DNA of 64,000 nt from Elusimicrobiota bacterium (GTDB lineage: Bacteria > Elusimicrobiota > Elusimicrobia > UBA1565 > UBA9628): contig JBIOJO010000013.1 in the NCBI GenBank assembly GCA_044450965.1, forward strand, positions 1,853-65,852, given 5' to 3'. The notes below the pieces were generated by a model. The model worked only from the letters and a program-made list of their open reading frames with translations, made no database searches and was not told the DNA's origin. The first letter of the stretch is position 1. Each line of letters begins with the position of its first letter. Made by a program: the position numbers and the translations under genes. Of this stretch, positions 3,174 through 60,012 are shown piece after piece.

Positions 3174-4004
3174 TCACGACGCGCGCGGCTTGCGCGCCGC
3201 CAGTTCCAGGAAGTACTTGGTCATGCAACCCGCGGCCCACGCCGTGACCATGAACTGGAGCGCGTTGAAGACCAGCCCCGAGAGCAGGGCCCCGGCGGCA
3301 CCGGCGCCCGCCGCGGCGGAGCCCGCGCGCAGGACGACGTTCACGATCACCGCGGGAATCATCCCGACCAGAGCCGCTGCGATCAGCGCGGCCATGAAGA
3401 CCACGGTCTCGCCGAAGCTCCCGCCGACCAGCTCCCAGCTGCGGGAGAGGCCTTCCCGGGCGCTCAGGTCCTCCACCAAGGTCGCGCAGACGGCCAGGCT
3501 CAGGCGCACGAAGAGGTAAATGCCCGGGATGACGAAGAGAATGAAGCCGAACCCCAGAGCCGCGCCGATCATCGCCGACGCCAGCAGGACGCTTCCCATC
3601 CGGCCCAGCGCCTCGACGAACAGGTCCGTGACCGACGAGGATTCGCCGCGCAGCGCGCGCGCCGCAAGCAGGATGGTCGCGGCGTAGCCGATCAGGCCCA
3701 GCGCCATCGCCACCAGCGCCACGATGGCCAGCATGCCCAGCGCGGGCCAGTTCTGCCCGCTGATGGCGTCCTTGACGGCGTTCTGGTCGGTCAGGCCCGT
3801 GATCAGGCCCACGACGAAGCCCAGGAGCTGGGAGGGAAGCGAGCACAGGGCCCACAGGCCCAGCAGGACTCCCGCGTTGTCCAAAGTCGCGTTGGTGGCG
3901 GCGGAGAATATCCCGCCGAGGCCCGGCATGGCGGCGGACGGCGCGGGTGAGGCGGGGGCTTGTTCCATGACGGCAAGCGTAGCGGGACTGCGCCCGCGCG
4001 TCAA
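3174..4004 (-). CDS. hypothetical Gly/Ala-rich polytopic membrane protein
   Basis: Multiple hydrophobic helices; no recognised motif. Confidence 0.4.
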   Translation of the reverse strand: MTRGRSPATLAVMEQAPASPAPSAAMPGLGGIFSAATNATLDNAGVLLGLWALCSLPSQLLGFVVGLITGLTDQNAVKDAISGQNWPALGMLAIVALVAMALGLIGYAATILLAARALRGESSSVTDLFVEALGRMGSVLLASAMIGAALGFGFILFVIPGIYLFVRLSLAVCATLVEDLSAREGLSRSWELVGGSFGETVVFMAALIAAALVGMIPAVIVNVVLRAGSAAAGAGAAGALLSGLVFNALQFMVTAWAAGCMTKYFLELAARKPRAS

Positions 4005-4010
4005 GGGGTG

Positions 4011-4610
4011 CTAAGGCGCGGAGCGTGCCGCCGTGGGTGAAGCCGGGGCGTAGAGCGCCTTCAGGAAGTTCTTGTCGTCCTGCCATGCGGCCTCGGCGTC
4101 GGCCGCGAAGTCGGAGCGAGTGCGCTCCTGCGCGGCGGCGAACTGGTTCCAGCGCGCCTCGCGCGCGGCGAAGAACTCCTGCATCTTCTGCTTCTGTTGC
4201 GTCTCGAAGGACTTCACCATGGTGCCGCGCAGCCGCTCGTAATCCGCGACCGTGGACGCGTGGTCTTTCGGGTCCAAGGTTTCCAGGGTGGAGAAGAGGT
4301 CCACCGCCTGACGGGCGGTGCGCAGCTCGAAGGTCTTGCGCGCGTCGCGGTCCTTGCCCCAGAACTCCTCCCAAAGCAAGGTCTCGCGGGAGGAAAACTC
4401 CAAGCGCGCGGCGTACGCCTCCTGCAGCTTCTTGGTGCGCTGGGCCAGGTACGCCTCCACGCGCTTCTTGCCGTCCTCCGCGGCGGTCTTGACGGCGGCC
4501 GGGGCCTCGTCGGCGGGGGGCGCCTCGGTTTTCTTCCTCGAGGACGACGGGGCGGCGGCGGCCGCGGACGCCAGGCACAACAGGCAGAGGGAGACGCGCG
4601 TGATATTCAT
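4011..4610 (-). CDS. hypothetical secreted protein (signal peptide, coiled-coil rich)
   Basis: N-terminus MNITRVSLCLLCLASAAAAA is a signal peptide; charged helical remainder. Confidence 0.4.
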   Translation of the reverse strand: MNITRVSLCLLCLASAAAAAPSSSRKKTEAPPADEAPAAVKTAAEDGKKRVEAYLAQRTKKLQEAYAARLEFSSRETLLWEEFWGKDRDARKTFELRTARQAVDLFSTLETLDPKDHASTVADYERLRGTMVKSFETQQKQKMQEFFAAREARWNQFAAAQERTRSDFAADAEAAWQDDKNFLKALYAPASPTAARSAP

Positions 4611-4681
4611 TCCATGACCTCGGTTCACGGTCGGAGTGTAGCCGCGGTCTTCGCGCCTGTCAATGGCGACGGCGGGGAGGC

Positions 4682-5002
4682 CTAGACCGAGAACGACTTG
4701 CCGCAGGAGCAGGAGGAGACGGCCTGCGGGTTCTTCACCACGAAGCCCGAGGCCATCAGGCTTTCCGCGTAGTCCACCACGGAACCGCCGATGAAGAAGT
4801 CGGCCTTCGGGTCCACGACGGTCTTGGCTCCGAACGCCTCGAAGACGGCGTCGTCGGGATTGAGCACGTCGGAGACCTCGAACTCGTAGCTCATGCCGGA
4901 ACAGCCGCCCGCGCCCACCTTCACGCGCAGAACCGGCGCCTGGCCCTTCTTCTCGGCCAGAGCCTTGATCTTCTTGGCGGCGTTTTCGGTCAGAGTGATC
5001 AT
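4682..5002 (-). CDS. Fe-S cluster insertion protein, HesB/IscA/ErpA family
   Basis: 106 aa; Cys in GAGGCSG plus C-terminal SCSCGKSF (C-x-C) signature of A-type carriers. Confidence 0.8.
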   Translation of the reverse strand: MITLTENAAKKIKALAEKKGQAPVLRVKVGAGGCSGMSYEFEVSDVLNPDDAVFEAFGAKTVVDPKADFFIGGSVVDYAESLMASGFVVKNPQAVSSCSCGKSFSV

Positions 5003-8467: not shown

Positions 8468-9547
<1,080 letters not shown>

Positions 9548-9551
9548 TATT

Positions 9552-9616
9552 GGGGTCAGGCTTCAACTAATCAACTTATTCGGAAAAATAAGTTGATTGA
9601 GTTGAAGCCTGACACC
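9552..9616. repeat. Long AT-rich near-perfect palindrome (27-28 bp arms, 9-nt loop) with GGTCAGGCTT termini
   Basis: GGGGTCAGGCTTCAACTAATCAACTTATT cggaaaaat AATAAGTTGATTGAGTTGAAGCCTGACACC; arms are complementary with one bulge; related element at 56633..56711. Confidence 0.6.
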
Positions 9617-9631
9617 CTCCCAGGAGATAAC

Positions 9632-10117
9632 ATGACCACCGCCACCGCTACCCCCGAGACCACGCCGATCGCCGTCGGAGCCGTCGCCCCCGATTTCAAG
9701 CTGCCGGATTCGGAGAAGAAGGAGTGGACGCTCTCCGAGTTCAAGGGCAAGAAGCCCGTCGCCCTGTTCTTCTACCCGCTGGACTTCTCCCCGACCTGCT
9801 CCAAGGAGAACGTCTGCTTCTCCCAGGACCTGTCCCGCTACGAGCAGTTCGCGCAGGTGTTCGGCATCTCCGTGGACTCCGTCTGGGCGCACAAGGCCTA
9901 CAAGGCCGCCAACGGCCTGAAGCACACGCTCTTGGCCGACATGCACCGCTCCGCGATCAAGGCCTACGGCCTGTTCCTGCCCGCCGCGAACATCTCCCAG
10001 CGCGCCACCGTCCTGATCAACAAGGACGGCAAGGTGGCGTGGGTGAAGGTCGAGGCCGACATCACCAAGGAGCGCGACTACAAGGAGCTGGAAGCCCAGC
10101 TCGCGAAGCTCGCCTAA
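9632..10117 (+). CDS. peroxiredoxin (AhpC/TSA family, 1-Cys/Prx-type)
   Basis: FKGKKPVALFFYPLDFSPTCSKE peroxidatic Cys motif; AGGAGA RBS. Confidence 0.85.
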   Translation: MTTATATPETTPIAVGAVAPDFKLPDSEKKEWTLSEFKGKKPVALFFYPLDFSPTCSKENVCFSQDLSRYEQFAQVFGISVDSVWAHKAYKAANGLKHTLLADMHRSAIKAYGLFLPAANISQRATVLINKDGKVAWVKVEADITKERDYKELEAQLAKLA

Positions 10118-34667: not shown

Positions 34668-34714
34668 GGGAGTCTCCGTAGAAAAACGAACGGAAGAAAA
34701 AACGACGAAATCAT

Positions 34715-34747
34715 CCGGTGGGAGGCCCCTGAGGGGCCTCCCACCGG
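34715..34747 (-). terminator. Perfect 15-bp-stem hairpin between nrdA and nrdB (terminator/attenuator)
   Basis: CCGGTGGGAGGCCCC tga GGGGCCTCCCACCGG followed on the minus strand by a T-rich tract (TTTCGTCGTTTTTTCTT). Confidence 0.55.
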
Positions 34748-34759
34748 ATACGGGTTATC

Positions 34760-40133: not shown

Positions 40134-40984
40134 GGATGGCTTCCTTTTATAGCGGAGGTGGAGACGGCGGTGAAGAAGGATCGTCCCGGGAAGGACGGGG
40201 GCGTGCGGCCCAGGACGTAGAGGGCGGTGGACCAGGCGTCGGCGTCGGTCGCGCTCGGGAGAACCGCGGTGGCCTGGACGGCGCGGCGTACCGGGAGGCC
40301 GTCGAACGGTGAGGCGATGTGTCCGGGCCGCTCGGAATCGCCGGAGGTGGAAACCGAGGCGTTCCGCACGGTCAGCGGCTCGTCCCGGCCGGGCAGCGCG
40401 ACCGACCAATCGCCGCCGTCTTCCGCCGTTCCGAGCGCCATTATTTGTCCGCCGAAGTTGATGAAGGCGTTGGCGATGCCTTTCGCGCGCAGAACCTCGC
40501 CGGCGCGGTCCAGCGCCCAGCCCTTTCCGATCCCGCCGAAGTCCAGGCCCATGCCGGACTGAGGAAGCTCGATGGTTCCGGCCGCCGGGTCCAGCCGCAC
40601 CTTCGACCAGCCGATCAGGGGCAAGGCGGCGGGCCCGCGCCGGAGGACGGGCAGGATCGCCGGATCGAAGGCGCCGCCGGTCTCCCGGGCCAGGCGCAGG
40701 GCGGCTTCGGTCTGCGCGTACAGGCCGGGGGAGGCGCGGAACGGCCCTCGCCCGGCGGAAGCGTTCAGCGCGTTGAGCTCGCTTTCCTTTTTATAGAGAC
40801 TCAAGACGCGGTCCCAATGGTCGATCTCGTCGAACGCCGCGGCGACCGCGGCGCCGGCGCCGTCGCCCCGGGCTTCGATCGAGCAGAAGGTGCCCATCAG
40901 CCAGCGCGTGCGGGCGATTTTGCTCTCCGCGGCGTCCGCTCCGGCCGCGCCGAGCGTCAGCGCCGACATGACCAGGGCGGCCAT
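40130..40984 (-). CDS. apbE: FAD:protein FMN transferase, ApbE family
   Basis: ApbE signature LDFGGIGKGWALD and overall ApbE length; signal peptide. Confidence 0.8.
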   Translation of the reverse strand: MAALVMSALTLGAAGADAAESKIARTRWLMGTFCSIEARGDGAGAAVAAAFDEIDHWDRVLSLYKKESELNALNASAGRGPFRASPGLYAQTEAALRLARETGGAFDPAILPVLRRGPAALPLIGWSKVRLDPAAGTIELPQSGMGLDFGGIGKGWALDRAGEVLRAKGIANAFINFGGQIMALGTAEDGGDWSVALPGRDEPLTVRNASVSTSGDSERPGHIASPFDGLPVRRAVQATAVLPSATDADAWSTALYVLGRTPPSFPGRSFFTAVSTSAIKGSHP

Positions 40985-41057
40985 TTTCTTATTGATAAGC
41001 GATTTCAACAAGGAAAAGATAGCACACCTCTTATTGAAATACAATATCAATAAGAAA

Positions 41058-41094
41058 ACGGGCAAAAAGAAGGCCCGCCTCGCGGCGGGCCTTC
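41058..41094 (-). terminator. Rho-independent terminator after the dsbA-like gene
   Basis: GAAGGCCCGCC tcgc GGCGGGCCTTC followed on the minus strand by TTTTTGCCCGTTTTCTT. Confidence 0.6.
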
Positions 41095-55132: not shown

Positions 55133-56625
55133 GCGGCGGCCAAGGTGAAGGAGAAGCGCGAGCCCTTCCCGGGCCGGCTGTCCAGCTCCAGCTCGCTGCC
55201 GTGCGCTTCGAGGATCATCCGCGAGAGCGCCAAGCCGACGCCGAAGCCCTTCGCCGTGCGCTTGCCCTGCTCGGTGCGGTAGTAGCCGGAAAAGATCTTC
55301 TCGCGGTCCTCGGGCGCGATGCCGATGCCCGTGTCCTTCACGAAAACCTCCACGCGTCCGTCGGCGCGCCGCAGCGCGCCCAAGCTCACCGCGCCGTTTT
55401 CCGGCGTGTACTTGAACGCGTTCGTCAGCAGGTTCGCCACGACCAGCGGGAGCGCGTCCGGATCGCCGGAAACCGCGGGCAGGCCCGGCGCCACGTCCAG
55501 CGTGACGGTCAGCTTCTTGCGCCGGGCGATCACCTGCAGGCGCTCGAGAGACTGGCTCAGCAGGGGGGCCAGCTCCACGCGCTGGGACTCCAGGTTGAAT
55601 TTCCCCGACTCCAACCGGCCCAGGTTCAGCAGGTTGGTGGCCATGGCCGACAGGGCGCTGACGTTGGCGTCCAGCATCTCGTGCCAGGGAGCGTCGGCGG
55701 GGGACTTGTCGTTCTCCATCAGCAGGACGTGCGCGGTATGGATGACGGTGAGGGCGTTGTTGAACTCGTGGCTGACGCCGGAGACCAACTGCGACTTCAG
55801 CCGGTTGGTCTCGCGCTCGCGCTCGAACTGGGCGTTGAGCTTGCCGGCCATGGCCCGCATCGTCTCAATAAGGTCGTGAAGCTCCCGAGGGGCGTCCCGG
55901 TCGTCCTGAAGAGTCCAAATCTCTCCCAGTTTCCACGCGCCCGCCTGCGCGCGCAGGCGCAGGAGCGGATTGACCAAGATGCGCGCGACCATGGCCGACA
56001 GCGTCAGCGCGCCGAAGACGCCGAAGATCAGGATGAATCCGAACGTGGCGAAGGCGGCGGATCGGGCGGCGCGGCGCTGGGCGTCCATGCGCTGGAAGCC
56101 GATGCGGCCGATGCGCGCCATCCTCTCCACCAGGGAGTCCACGTCGTCCTTCATCAGCGCCTTCTCGACGGCCTCGGCGCGGTTCATGTTCCCGCGCTGC
56201 GCCCGCTCCAAAATCTTGTTCTCCGATTCGATGTATTGATCGAACTGCTCCCCGATTTGGCTCCATTCCTTGAGCTCCAGCGGGTTCTTCAGGCGGGAGG
56301 CGAGCCGGCGATGGTTGGCGCGGAACTCCGCGATCGCGGCGCGGCGGCGGGCCAGCCAGTCGGGCTTGTGCGTCAGCAGGTAATCCGCCGCGTCGATGTC
56401 GATCTTGTGCACCAGGGCGCGCTGGGCCGGCAGATCGGCCAGGAAAGAGAGCTCCTCGGCGAACCCGGCCTCCAGGCGGTCCTCCTCGCGGCTGCTGGTC
56501 AGGTAGGCCACGGTGGAGAGCCCCGTGAAAACGCATAGGGCGGTGGCCAGCAAAGCGGTCAGGCGCGCGCGGAGGGTCCAGGTCTTCACGACGGTATACT
56601 GCGATTTAAGCCCTTGTCCCCGCAA
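55129..56625 (-). CDS. sensor histidine kinase (2 TM, HAMP, HisKA, HATPase_c), no cognate regulator nearby
   Basis: H-box SHEFNNALTVI, N/G1/G2 boxes LLTNAFKYT, DTGIGI, GFGVGLALS; TTG start per track. Confidence 0.8.
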   Translation of the reverse strand: MRGQGLKSQYTVVKTWTLRARLTALLATALCVFTGLSTVAYLTSSREEDRLEAGFAEELSFLADLPAQRALVHKIDIDAADYLLTHKPDWLARRRAAIAEFRANHRRLASRLKNPLELKEWSQIGEQFDQYIESENKILERAQRGNMNRAEAVEKALMKDDVDSLVERMARIGRIGFQRMDAQRRAARSAAFATFGFILIFGVFGALTLSAMVARILVNPLLRLRAQAGAWKLGEIWTLQDDRDAPRELHDLIETMRAMAGKLNAQFERERETNRLKSQLVSGVSHEFNNALTVIHTAHVLLMENDKSPADAPWHEMLDANVSALSAMATNLLNLGRLESGKFNLESQRVELAPLLSQSLERLQVIARRKKLTVTLDVAPGLPAVSGDPDALPLVVANLLTNAFKYTPENGAVSLGALRRADGRVEVFVKDTGIGIAPEDREKIFSGYYRTEQGKRTAKGFGVGLALSRMILEAHGSELELDSRPGKGSRFSFTLAAA

Positions 56626-56632
56626 CGTCGAG

Positions 56633-56711
56633 GCGGGGTCAGGCTTTTACTTATTTCACTTATTCATGCGCGACGTTTCAATAAGTGAAATAAGTAAAAG
56701 CCTGACCCCGC
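56633..56711. repeat. Perfect 32-bp inverted repeat with a 15-nt loop, AT-rich interior, GGTCAGGCTT termini
   Basis: GCGGGGTCAGGCTTTTACTTATTTCACTTATT catgcgcgacgtttc AATAAGTGAAATAAGTAAAAGCCTGACCCCGC; lies in the divergent HK/addA promoter region. Confidence 0.65.
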
Positions 56712-56730
56712 TTCATCCTATAATCCGTGG

Positions 56731-59700
56731 ATGGACGCCCCCGACCGCGAGCACCGCGACCGCGCGCGCTTCCGGCTCGACGCGAACGTGGTGGTCGAGG
56801 CGGGGGCGGGCACGGGCAAGACCACCTTGCTCACCGACCGCATCTTGTTCCTGGTGCTGGGCTGGGACAAGCCGGCGCCGGTGAGCGTGGACCGCGTCGT
56901 GGCGCTGACCTTCACCGAGAAGGCCGCGGGCGAGATCAAGCTGCGCCTCTCCGACCGCCTGGCCGAGCTGGCGGGGCGGCTGGCCGGCGGCGCGCTGGGC
57001 GGCGCGGCGGCCGAGCGCGCCGACCGGACCTTGGACGAATTGCGCGGCCAGTTCGGCAAGCAGGACGCGGAGCTGCTGGCGCGCGCGCGCGCGGCGCTGG
57101 AGGATCTGGACAAAGCTCCGATCGGCACGATCCATTCCTTCTGCGCCCAGATACTGCGTCTTCATCCCGTCGAGGCGGGCGTGGACCCCGGCTTCCGCGT
57201 GGACGAGGGCACGGCGTTCGAGGAGCTGTTCGCGTCCGAATGGGCGGCCTGGCTGGACGACGAGTTGGGCGAGCGGCCGCCGCGCCGCGGGGCGTGGCTG
57301 GAACTGCTGGCCGTCGCGGAGCTGGACGAGCTGGAGGCGCTGGCGCGGGAGCTGTGCGCGGAGAAGCTGGAACTGGGCGGCCAGGGCGGACCGGATCCCG
57401 CGGCCGCCTCGGCGCTGCGCGCGCTCGCGAAAAGCGCGGCGAACCTCCCGGAGGGGCGTCCCAAGCCGCGCGGCAAGATCCTGGAGGCGCTGGCCGAGAT
57501 CGGCGCGCGCCTGGAAGCCGCCGCGGAGGCCGCGGAGTCGGACGCGCCCGCGCTGGACGCCGCGGAGCCTCCCGCGCCGCGCGACGCGAAGTGGCCGTCC
57601 GCTTGGGAGGAGGATCCCGCGGCGGAGGCTTTGTACGAGCGCCTGTCCGCGGTGGCCGCGTCGGCCAGCCCGCGCGGGGAGGCCGCCGCACGCCGCGCGG
57701 CGCGCCTGCTGGTCCCGTTCGCCGAGCGCTTCCGCCGCGAATTCGCGCGCCGGGGCTGGGTCTCCTTCGATGGGCTTCTTCGCCGCGCGCGCGACCTGGT
57801 CCGGGACCGGCCGCGGGTGCGAGAAGAGGTCAAGCGCCGCTTCGCCGCGCTCCTGATCGACGAGTTCCAGGACACCGACCCTCTGCAGGGCGAGCTCCTG
57901 ATGTATCTGGCCGAGAAGCCGGAAGGCGGCGCCAAGCGCTGGCGGGACGTGATCCCCGCGCCGGGCCGCGTGTTCGTGGTCGGCGATCCGAAGCAGTCCA
58001 TCTACCGATTCCGCGGGGCGGACATCGCGGCCTACGAGGGCTTCGTGGACCGTCTGCGCGAAACGGGGGCGCTGGTCTGCGACCTGACCGCGAACTTCCG
58101 CTCGGTGCCGGGAGTGGTGGGGCCGGTGAACCGGGCGTTCGAAAAGGCGATGGTCGCCGAGCCGGGCGCGCAGCCTCCGTACAAGGCCATCCTGGCCGCG
58201 CGCGCGCCCGGCGCGCCGGAGCCGGCGGTGCGCGTCGTGGCGGTGACCGATCCCTCGGGCGTGTCCGACGCGGCCGACGTCCAGCGCGCCGAGGCGAGTT
58301 GGATATCCCGTTGGATTTCCGAGAATGCGCGCGTTCCGGGAGCCTCGAAGGAAGGCCGGCGTCCGTTGAAGGACATCGCCGTGCTGCTGCGTTCGTCCAC
58401 GTCTCTGCCGTCTTTGTTGGACGCTTTCAAGAGGGCGGGAATTCCGTACGCGGTCGAGATCGAGCGGTTCTTCTACGAAGCGCCCGAAGTGTCCGACTTT
58501 TTGAATCTTCTGCGGGCGCTGGACGACGACGGCGATCGCATCGCGATCGCCGGGCTGCTCCGTTCGCCGTTGGCCGCGTTGACCGATGGAAGTCTTCTGG
58601 CGCTATCCCAGGAAGACGGGCTCACGTACCGCCGCGATCCGGCGAGAGGCGTCATTCCGGAGGGGGAGCGTCGCCGCGCGGCGGACCTGTTCGAGGCCCT
58701 TCGGTCTCTGCGCGCGCGCGTCGGCCGCGAGCCTCTCGGCGACCTGGTCGGCGCCGCGCTGGAAAAAACCCGCTTGGTCGAATTGTCCGCGCGCGCGTAT
58801 CACGGCCAGCAGACGGTTTCGAATCTGCTGAAGCTCCGGCGCCTGGCGGTGGAGGCGTCCGACGGACGGGGCGCGACATTGAAGGAATTCGCCGCCCACG
58901 TCCGCGACGCCGCGCGCGAGTCCCGCCGCGAGGGCGAAAGCCCGCTGGCCGACGAGAAGCTGGAAGCGGTGCGCGTGATGACCATGCACAAATCGAAAGG
59001 GCTGGAATTTCCGGTGGTCATCGCGGCGAACCTTTCCGGCAAGCCGGGCGGGGGAAGCGAGAAGCCGGTCTCCCGCCTGGACCCGGCGACCGGCCGCGCC
59101 GCCCTGCGCCTGGGAAGCCTGGCCTCCGCCGCGATGGCGCTGGCCGACGCGCGGGAGAAGGAGATGGAGCGCCGGGAGTCCGTGCGCCTGCTCTACGTGG
59201 CGATGACCCGCGCCCGGGAAATCCTCTATCTGGTCGGACGGGAGAAAGCGGCGAGCGGCTCCCTGGCCTCGCATCTGGACGGGGCGGGATCCTGGCCCGG
59301 CGAGGGACGCGAGGGCCATCTGCCCGCGGCCTTCATCGACGCCGCCCAGACCCCGGAGCCCGCTTCCGCCGCGCCCGCCGCCGCGTCGTCCGATCCGAAG
59401 GACGTCGCGGCCGTCGTCGCCGCGTGGGAGCGGCGCGCCGTTTTGAGGAAGTCCGCGGAGACGCCGCGCGCGCGCGCCGCGACCGCGTATTTGCGCGAAC
59501 TGCCGAAGCGGCCGTCGTCCGCGGAAGAAGGCGGCGGATCTCCGGCCGGGGCGGAGGTGGGGCAGCTCTGCCACCGGGTCCTGCAAGAATGGGACTTCCG
59601 CGCGGGCGGCGACCTCAAGAAGGAGACGAAAAGCGCGCGGGAGCTTTTGGAGCGGCGCGCGCCGGGCCCCCGTTGGCCGGAGGCGGAAGCCGAAGCGGTG

Positions 59701-60012
59701 AAAATCCTGGAGACGTTCGTCGCGTCCAAGGCCGCGAAGTCCTTGGCCATGGCCGAGATTCTGGGCCGGGAGACGCCGTTCGCGTACGCCGACGGAGACA
59801 CGGTGGTGCGCGGCGCCGCGGACCTGATCTATCGCGACGGCAAGACGGTGGTCGTCGCGGACTTCAAGAGCGAGAAGGTGGACGAGAAATCCGCCGCGGC
59901 GATTCGCGCCCGCTACGCGGAGCAGGGCCGCGCCTACTGCGAGGCGGTGGAGCGGGCCTGGGGCGTCCCGGCGGAGTTCCGGGTGCTGTTCCTGCGCCGT
60001 CCGGACCTCTGA
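56731..60012 (+). CDS. addA: AddA-type helicase-nuclease subunit (UvrD-like helicase + C-terminal PD-(D/E)XK nuclease)
   Basis: Walker A EAGAGTGKTT, UvrD motifs; C-terminal AADLIYRDGKTVVVADFKSEK nuclease motif; TATAAT 8 nt upstream of the ATG. Confidence 0.8.
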   Translation: MDAPDREHRDRARFRLDANVVVEAGAGTGKTTLLTDRILFLVLGWDKPAPVSVDRVVALTFTEKAAGEIKLRLSDRLAELAGRLAGGALGGAAAERADRTLDELRGQFGKQDAELLARARAALEDLDKAPIGTIHSFCAQILRLHPVEAGVDPGFRVDEGTAFEELFASEWAAWLDDELGERPPRRGAWLELLAVAELDELEALARELCAEKLELGGQGGPDPAAASALRALAKSAANLPEGRPKPRGKILEALAEIGARLEAAAEAAESDAPALDAAEPPAPRDAKWPSAWEEDPAAEALYERLSAVAASASPRGEAAARRAARLLVPFAERFRREFARRGWVSFDGLLRRARDLVRDRPRVREEVKRRFAALLIDEFQDTDPLQGELLMYLAEKPEGGAKRWRDVIPAPGRVFVVGDPKQSIYRFRGADIAAYEGFVDRLRETGALVCDLTANFRSVPGVVGPVNRAFEKAMVAEPGAQPPYKAILAARAPGAPEPAVRVVAVTDPSGVSDAADVQRAEASWISRWISENARVPGASKEGRRPLKDIAVLLRSSTSLPSLLDAFKRAGIPYAVEIERFFYEAPEVSDFLNLLRALDDDGDRIAIAGLLRSPLAALTDGSLLALSQEDGLTYRRDPARGVIPEGERRRAADLFEALRSLRARVGREPLGDLVGAALEKTRLVELSARAYHGQQTVSNLLKLRRLAVEASDGRGATLKEFAAHVRDAARESRREGESPLADEKLEAVRVMTMHKSKGLEFPVVIAANLSGKPGGGSEKPVSRLDPATGRAALRLGSLASAAMALADAREKEMERRESVRLLYVAMTRAREILYLVGREKAASGSLASHLDGAGSWPGEGREGHLPAAFIDAAQTPEPASAAPAAASSDPKDVAAVVAAWERRAVLRKSAETPRARAATAYLRELPKRPSSAEEGGGSPAGAEVGQLCHRVLQEWDFRAGGDLKKETKSARELLERRAPGPRWPEAEAEAVKILETFVASKAAKSLAMAEILGRETPFAYADGDTVVRGAADLIYRDGKTVVVADFKSEKVDEKSAAAIRARYAEQGRAYCEAVERAWGVPAEFRVLFLRRPDL

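Follow-up and report, generated by a model that had tools for sequence, protein, structure and literature searches.

A perfect palindrome between a histidine kinase gene and addA in an Elusimicrobiota genome is very probably a MITE-like TIR dimer of the TIRtron family

Two divergent genes of an Elusimicrobiota MAG, one for a histidine kinase and one for an AddA-like protein, are separated by a palindrome, which raises the question of whether this sequence is a control site shared by the two genes or a mobile repeat that landed between them. We analyzed it within a 64,000-nucleotide stretch of the MAG, referred to here as the window. The perfect 32-nt inverted repeat with a 15-nt spacer that had been described at positions 56633 to 56711 is present exactly as claimed, with one arm, GCGGGGTCAGGCTTTTACTTATTTCACTTATT, at 56633 to 56664, its exact reverse complement at 56680 to 56711, and the spacer, or loop, CATGCGCGACGTTTC at 56665 to 56679. 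In a repeat search, the arms stretched to 35 nt (56630 to 56664 and 56680 to 56714) at 97% complementarity, with one mismatch, and the resulting palindrome at 56630 to 56714 is the longest inverted repeat in the window. On the plus strand, the left arm contains a terminal core, GGGGTCAGGC (56635 to 56644), and a sub-terminal tandem repeat (56645 to 56664) made up of TTTTACTTA, then TTTCACTTA, then TT, in which the two units are identical at 8 of 9 positions with a 9-nt period. The right arm mirrors this arrangement on the minus strand, with the tandem repeat at 56680 to 56699 and the core GCCTGACCCC, the reverse complement of GGGGTCAGGC, at 56700 to 56709. A single arm, GGGGTCAGGCTTTTACTTATTTCACTTATT, is not self-complementary and carries neither a GTAG nor a CGTC tag, and the bases that flank the palindrome are GAGGC on the left (56630 to 56634) and GCTTC on the right (56710 to 56714). 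Elsewhere in the window, we observed an inverted repeat at 34713 to 34749 with perfect 18-nt arms and a 1-nt spacer (ATCCGGTGGGAGGCCCCT-A-AGGGGCCTCCCACCGGAT), the sequence of which is unrelated to the palindrome family.

The palindrome is predicted to form a very stable hairpin, with a folding energy of -63 kcal/mol as RNA (z = -14.3, with 0 of 200 shuffles as good) and -38 kcal/mol as DNA (z = -12.7, with no shuffle equalling the score). Such stability would suit a structured RNA that acts as a bidirectional terminator, mRNA stabilizer, or small RNA, as would the position of a second copy at 9552, just downstream of a gene end, and the A- and T-rich flanks of some copies in other genomes (for example, L018). 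In contrast, the copy at 56633 lies between two divergent gene starts and thus not at any 3' end, a terminator scan of positions 56450 to 56850 found no terminator-like site and no T-tract terminator, and a search of the whole window at the Rfam gathering score gave no match. An E-value search of the element against Rfam returned only sub-threshold generic miRNA hairpins, which we judged meaningless. We consider a structured RNA an extremely improbable explanation of the element.

To place the palindrome relative to its neighbors, we examined the divergent genes and their shared promoter region. The minus-strand neighbor encodes a HisKA/HATPase_c histidine kinase, and the plus-strand neighbor (56731 to 60012) encodes the AddA-like protein, with UvrD-helicase and PD-(D/E)XK regions. 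The original prediction had the right arm overlapping the -35 region of a TATAAT box located 8 nt before the addA ATG and the left arm overlapping the ribosome-binding site and start of the kinase gene. The TATAAT box is present on the plus strand (56719 to 56724), 6 nt before the ATG at 56731. The insertion lies 5 to 9 nt upstream of this box, and the outer end of the right arm fills the position where the addA -35 element would be. A promoter consensus scan of positions 56450 to 56850 detected no -35/-10 pair resembling that of sigma-70. The proposed overlap with the kinase ribosome-binding site or start is not supported, since four kinase orthologues begin with M-K/R-x-W, which matches a GTG at 56587 to 56589 on the minus strand and not the mechanical TTG start at 56625. 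This alignment makes the GTG the probable true start codon and places the left arm 41 to 44 nt upstream of it.

We then compared the kinase/addA region with those of four related Elusimicrobiota genomes (L123/L124, L125, L126/L127, and L128), in which AddA is 84, 81, 80, and 78% identical to that of the window. All four keep the arrangement of a minus-strand kinase gene and a plus-strand addA, and the palindrome is absent from the orthologous spacer in each of them; these spacers are 71, 59 to 76, or 29 nt long or contain an extra gene. In three of the four, ATCCTATAAT is kept 6 nt before the addA ATG without the palindrome beside it, and we read this sequence as the host -10 box for addA and not as part of the element. 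A MAFFT alignment of the spacers misplaced the gap, and the empty site was clearer when compared by eye: the occupied site in the window reads GCAACGTCGAGGC, then the GGGG...CCCC insert, then GCTTCATCCTATAAT, whereas the empty site in L126 reads GCAACGAGGC-TAAATCCTATAAT, with the junction GAGGC/TAAAT. On this comparison, the copy at 56630 to 56714 is an insertion specific to this Elusimicrobiota lineage.

In the same spacer of L128 (AddA 78% identical), positions 9076 to 9984 hold a 302-amino-acid gene between the kinase gene and addA, with a signal-peptide-like N terminus and no Pfam match on record, so the kinase/addA spacer appears to be a recurrent site of change. We also observed that a -10-like box lies only about 6 nt from the start codon of each divergent gene, ATCCTATAAT in the case of addA and a AAATCGCA-N-ATA-type box in that of the kinase gene, and that these are conserved among the relatives (window positions 56590 to 56730; L123, 403 to 473; L126, 9925 to 10000). 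This spacing points to a very compact divergent promoter whose transcripts lack leaders, and the addA mRNA is probably leaderless.

These comparisons bear on the proposal that the sequence is a dedicated regulatory palindrome, that is, an operator or cruciform through which the divergent promoters of kinase and addA would be regulated together. The palindrome takes up most of the space between the divergent genes, its right end lies at the addA -35 position beside the conserved TATAAT box, and its four ACTTAT-type 9-mers, arranged as two plus two inverted units, resemble protein-binding sites. However, it is missing from relatives that have both this gene pair and its TATAAT box, and thus it is not a conserved regulatory site of kinase and addA. 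The left arm is clear of the kinase start, the promoter scan detected no sigma-70-like pair across the palindrome, the second copy in the window lies in the unrelated context of mrp and ahpC genes, and the same termini bound transposase genes and recur in at least 120 unrelated loci of many phyla, as described below. A dedicated regulatory role is therefore very unlikely. It is possible that the insertion alters kinase or addA expression, and any such regulatory effect would be a by-product of the insertion.

The second family member, at 9552 to 9616, reads GGGGTCAGGCTT-CAACTAATCAACTTATT-cggaaa-AATAAGTTGATTGAGTTG-AAGCCTGACACC and sits between the stop codon of an Mrp/NBP35 gene (9547) and the start of an AhpC gene (9632); like the palindrome as a whole and its spacer, it is assigned to neither strand. 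It and the copy at 56633 are the only two dimers seen in the window. The two had been said to share their termini and an AT-rich interior. The termini are indeed common to both, with GGGGTCAGGCTT on the left and AAGCCTGACACC on the right of the 9552 copy, and the interior of that copy is AT rich, but its sequence differs from that of the 56633 interior. Within these termini, the left end of the 9552 copy carries GGGGTCAG and the right end carries GCCTGACACC, which differs by one base. Its tandem unit, CAACTAAT/CAACTTAT, is identical at 7 of 9 positions with a period of 8.

The site of this second copy varies among relatives. The orthologous Mrp/AhpC spacer starts 4 nt past the Mrp stop codon and differs in content from genome to genome, with palindromes of differing interior in three relatives, a lone left arm in a fourth, and no element in a fifth, as seen when positions 9552 to 9616 of the window were compared with L209 (4085 to 4142), L210 (4093 to 4155), L212 (3766 to 3795), L214 (4081 to 4109), and L001 (1 to 57). 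The site is empty in L214 (Mrp 87% identical), which has a 29-nt spacer, and is occupied by other variants across L209 to L213. L209, whose Mrp is 97% identical to that of the window, has the same flanks and the same rare right terminus, GCCTGACACC, and yet its interior is unrelated. L210 (Mrp 94%) has a third interior together with a duplicated flank, L212 (Mrp 91%) has a solo left arm of the CAACT type found in the window, and the L001 palindrome carries a one-base indel in both arms. From these sequences, either the Mrp/AhpC site would be a hot spot or interiors would be exchanged at fixed termini, and the swapped interiors are not explained by plain cut-or-copy transposition. In two other assemblies, contigs that encode an identical AhpC protein end inside a 9552-type palindrome (L001, 1 to 71; L002, 1 to 40), which indicates that palindromes of this type break short-read assemblies.

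Other features of the window were also recorded. An AT-rich inverted repeat at 40981 to 41061, with a 17-nt spacer between 32-nt arms that are 81% complementary, lies immediately upstream of the start of a minus-strand gene and adjoins a terminator-like hairpin at 41067 to 41085. This repeat lacks the GGGGTCAGGC termini and has the CTTATTG motif that is common in interiors of the family, and it could be either a decayed family copy or an unrelated operator. The first 2,000 positions of the window have a G+C content of 53%, compared to 61 to 72% in the other 2-kb segments, and contain two minus-strand open reading frames (11 to 463 and 563 to 1468) with no Pfam match; this segment may be foreign DNA.

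To find further family members, we scanned one genome per species with the pattern GGGTCAGGCTT-N30-60-AAGCCTGAC. This DNA-first scan found at least 120 loci in many phyla and groups, including Desulfobacterota, Bacillota, Planctomycetota, Actinomycetes, Nitrospirota, Chlamydiae, Acidobacteria, Opitutaceae, Elusimicrobia, and others, with cultured isolates among the hosts. Nearly all of the listed matches are palindromic on both strands, even though only 9 nt were demanded of the right end. When the first 12 interior positions were compared between the two arms, 10 or more were complementary in 62% of 123 distinct interiors, while the identity between different elements over these 12 positions is just 36%, and thus the arms co-vary. 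As to whether the element is unique or conserved, its termini recur in at least these 120 loci, and its position between the kinase gene and addA is not kept in the four relatives. Of the mobile or regulatory palindrome family that had been suggested, it is the mobile part that stands, given the same termini in many phyla and at Y1-transposase genes, and not the notion of a dedicated regulatory site.

The arms of this family have a common anatomy. In 226 non-redundant arms, collected with a search pattern that preset positions 1 to 10 (GGGGTCAGGC), positions 11 and 12 are TT in about 85 to 90%. After the TT, a variable 8- to 9-nt unit occurs twice in tandem, as in GACTTATT-GACTTATT or TTCACAAG-TTCACAAA; a tandem identity of at least 7 of 9 positions at the best period, mostly 8, was found in 27% of the arms, compared to 3% of shuffles. 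A scan of metagenome contigs for the exact arm subtypes of the window, with the pattern GGGGTCAGGCTTYWACTWATN{0,1}YMACTTATT, gave no match, and a full-text search of the literature for the terminal sequence returned unrelated primer matches only.

The distribution of copies points to mobility. L209 carries two solo arms of the 56633 subtype (GGGGTCAGGCTTTTACTTTATTTACTTATT) where the window has no element, and within 7 kb it has one dimer and these two solo arms; in other loci, some elements sit in the loops of other copies. The elements make no target-site duplication, as identical flanks of 3, 4, and 5 nt were found in 2, 1, and 0 of 88 copies, respectively, which is the chance level. We also found that 10 of the 88 copies (L003 to L122) have at least 4 consecutive complementary flanking bases outside the GGGG/CCCC tips, compared to 0 of 88 in a shifted control. 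These complementary flanks, together with the copies inside loops, suggest either that insertion favors hairpin loops or that the flank is copied in inverted form. Many ends are stuttered: immediately beyond the true terminus, at either end of the element, there are 1 to 3 partial copies, in tandem, of some flanking bases followed by GGGGTCA(G...) (L062, 6790 to 6930; L027, 3310 to 3450; L048, 2690 to 2830; L099, 2060 to 2140; L170, 1105 to 1200; L177, 1264 to 1310; L210, 4075 to 4100).

A short element with only terminal inverted repeats (TIRs) could also be a MITE derived from an insertion sequence with a DDE transposase, such as one of the Tn3 family, the inverted repeats of which start with GGGG and so resemble the GGGGTC start seen here. 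The absence of target-site duplications argues against this origin, no recurrent DDE gene is found near the 120 listed loci, and genes that lie between such termini encode Y1_Tnp proteins, not DDE transposases, so that this source is most improbable. A Tn3-type TIME, considered for the GGGGTC start, was rejected on the same two grounds of missing target-site duplications and Y1 transposases inside. An integron attC site was also considered and rejected: attC core motifs have the order RYYYAAC...GTTRRRY, whereas the order here is reversed (GTCAGGC...GCCTGAC) and position 3 differs.

The genes associated with these termini emerged when solo termini near the elements were listed, since some lie about 1 kb apart and enclose a gene. 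The link to these genes, termed TIRYT, was seen only from elements with solo termini more than 1 kb apart, and an all-against-all BLAST of open reading frames within 1.5 kb of the 120 listed elements gave no large cluster. The proteins enclosed in L084 and L041 (332 and 300 amino acids, respectively) have an N-terminal Pfam Y1_Tnp domain with an HUH motif and a weak C-terminal match to Bac_DnaA_C. Three further loci hold homologues, so that 5 of the 120 listed loci (each 8 kb or less) contain a gene with Y1_Tnp and Bac_DnaA_C-like regions. A PDB search with a single TIRYT sequence found no match; only a profile of three of the proteins reached E. coli TnpA_REP (PDB 4ER8), over residues 21 to 144, and DnaA domain IV, over residues 175 to 310.

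To ask whether the termini accompany such genes in general, we used the TIRYT profile in a protein-first scan of metagenome contigs, which gave 80 loci identified from the protein alone. The sequence GGGGTCAGRC (GGGGTCAG[G/A]C) precedes the TIRYT gene by no more than 160 nt in 49 of 67 testable loci and, inverted, is found at or just past the TIRYT stop codon in 40 of 70; 30 of 57 loci have it at both ends. By chance, any one 10-mer would be expected approximately 3 x 10^-4 times per such stretch, and thus the association of the termini with TIRYT genes is not due to chance. The elements bounded in this way are 950 to 1,040 bp long, with TIRs of 21 to 36 nt. The genuine TIRs closest to the arm in the window, GGGGTCAGGCTTGA(A/G)TTATTTACTTATT, are those of L143 and L149. 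A tblastn search found no TIRYT gene in the 64-kb window, and in a search for an Elusimicrobiota TIRYT, the best 120 homologues of the L143 protein that were listed came mostly from Bacillota or unnamed hosts. In one TIRtron subfamily (L162 to L169, L174, L182, L184, and L191), the left TIR has GGTATTGACA at its inner end. A -35-like hexamer, TTGACA, is thereby placed some 30 nt ahead of the start codon of the TIRYT gene, and the TIR may thus contain the transposase promoter.

In two genomes, short palindromes can be compared directly with a TIRYT element. The TIRYT gene of L041 is bounded by GGGGTCAGGCTTCACAATTTCACAAAAT and its inverse (element at 3833 to 4870), and a short palindrome 2 kb away (1602 to 1677) has arms equal to the left TIR. 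In Desulfotruncus alcoholivorax DSM 16058, the TIRYT gene (L215, 1501 to 2379) is bounded by GGGGTCAGGCTTGAAATATTCCCTTATT and ...GAATAATTCAAGCCTGACCCC, and in a short palindrome elsewhere in the genome (L075, 564 to 619), both arms match the left TIR of the element (L215, 1445 to 2411) exactly. Thus, where the left and right TIRs differ (L041 and L075/L215), the dimers are left-left, not left-right. Since both arms equal the left TIR, the dimers look like inverted duplications of one end, and this composition does not fit a simple origin by internal deletion.

These properties agree with a known type of element. TIRYT genes have been described as RAYT-like genes flanked by TIRs that share GGGGWSAS, and 26 genes from complete genomes underlie the published account of TIRtrons, which are elements of about 1 kb that encode a TIRYT (Di Nocera et al. 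2013, BMC Genomics 14:522, PMC3733652). The same paper reports that the TIRs additionally occur as "moderately abundant" families of repeats, with "many organized in dimers or clusters." Most TIRYTs belong to TnpA_Y1 subclass 2.1, with Bac_DnaA_C or HTH C-terminal domains, and this subclass is found in about 15% of surveyed strains, as stated in a later survey (Quentin et al. 2018, BMC Genomics 19:475, PMC6006769). The termini of the 56633 copy fit GGGGWSAS, as GGGGTCAG at 56635 to 56642 and its mirror image at 56702 to 56709, and their 10-mer is the one found about 40 to 70 nt upstream of the TIRYT start and over the stop codon. Singles (L118, L209, and L212), dimers, and clusters (L017 and L073) were all seen here. 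In contrast to the published cases, the present dimer comes from an Elusimicrobiota MAG, forms a perfect palindrome with 32-nt arms, and is not accompanied by a TIRYT gene in the window. The 8- to 9-nt sub-repeat of the arms, the left-left dimers, the stuttered ends, and the swapping of interiors are not described in the available text of PMC3733652 and PMC6006769. On this evidence, we conclude that the sequence at 56630 to 56714 is very probably a non-autonomous, MITE-like TIR dimer derived from a TIRtron, with two inverted TIR copies head to head.

Among the closest known systems are also the REPIN/RAYT systems, which were reportedly described by Bertels and Rainey in 2011 and Nunvar et al. 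in 2010; the structure of TnpA_REP (4ER8) is said to come from Messing et al. in 2012. The element could be taken for a classical REP or REPIN of the kind that a canonical single-copy RAYT mobilizes in Escherichia and Pseudomonas. It is a REPIN-like doublet of inverted units that is non-coding and intergenic, forms a long hairpin, and makes no target-site duplication, and the associated proteins are Y1/HUH, IS200-like proteins that score best among NCBIfam models against REP_Tyr_transpos and match TnpA_REP in their N terminus. However, the NCBIfam scores of 60.7 and 72.7 bits are below the 80-bit cutoff, and the proteins, at about 300 amino acids, carry an added C-terminal domain with an HTH like that of DnaA domain IV. 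REP units are 20- to 40-nt imperfect palindromes with a GTAG (or CGTC) tag at one end (PMC3733652), whereas a single arm here is neither palindromic nor tagged. In addition, REPs are species specific, while the terminal 10-mer is common to many phyla, and the genes are flanked by long TIRs and not by REP hairpins, which is the distinction drawn between RAYTs and TIRYTs in PMC3733652 and PMC6006769. A classical REP or REPIN is thus a highly improbable identity for the palindrome.

The TIR dimer differs from other mobile elements as well. The IS200/IS605 family, including IS608 and ISDra2, shares the HUH-Y1 domain (Pfam Y1_Tnp), the lack of target-site duplications, and presumably single-strand chemistry, but its members use same-orientation sub-terminal hairpins and have no TIRs, in contrast to the 21- to 36-nt inverted repeats seen here. 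The MITEs Correia/NEMIS, RUP, and Nezha are likewise short, TIR-only, and non-autonomous and can enter promoters and fold into hairpins; unlike the element studied here, they are DDE derived and have target-site duplications.

Single-strand chemistry is established for IS608 and TnpA_REP, and given this enzyme class (IS200/IS605 and RAYT) and the absent target-site duplications, we infer that the palindrome is mobilized in trans through a single-stranded intermediate. A TIRYT encoded elsewhere in the genome would presumably act on it, with the two arms pairing into a hairpin in single-stranded DNA, and integration would make no target-site duplication, as in the IS200/IS605 family. The outer 10-mer GGGGTCAGGC would presumably be recognized and cleaved by the catalytic Y1 domain, and the lineage-variable, AT-rich, 8- to 9-nt tandem repeat would presumably be bound by the DnaA-domain-IV-like HTH, although Quentin et al. 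(PMC6006769) doubt that the DnaA-like domain reads the TIRs. Insertion into the short divergent promoter region left the addA -10 box and the kinase-proximal 41 nt intact but replaced the sequence at the addA -35 position. A more specific model, which we regard as unlikely, is that the GGGGTCAGGC termini are fixed recombination or cleavage sites, the sub-repeats are an exchangeable specificity module read by the HTH, and the dimers are fold-back duplicates of the left end and not products of internal deletion. If it were true, interiors could be swapped without moving the ends, which would account for the Mrp/AhpC site. Our literature search found no experimental work on the TIRYT family, including on transposition.

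The palindrome is thus very probably a mobile repeat that landed in the promoter region shared by a DNA-repair nuclease and a sensor kinase and not a control site for the two, and this reading is useful for annotation and explains assembly breaks at such elements. TIR dimers of TIRtrons are an already described but poorly studied kind of element, to which an Elusimicrobiota member is added here. The terminal 10-mer, which was preset in the DNA-first pattern, is the same from Bacillota to Planctomycetota and Elusimicrobiota, and the scans yield substrates that may be used to test a Y1 transposase that works with inverted repeats instead of sub-terminal hairpins.
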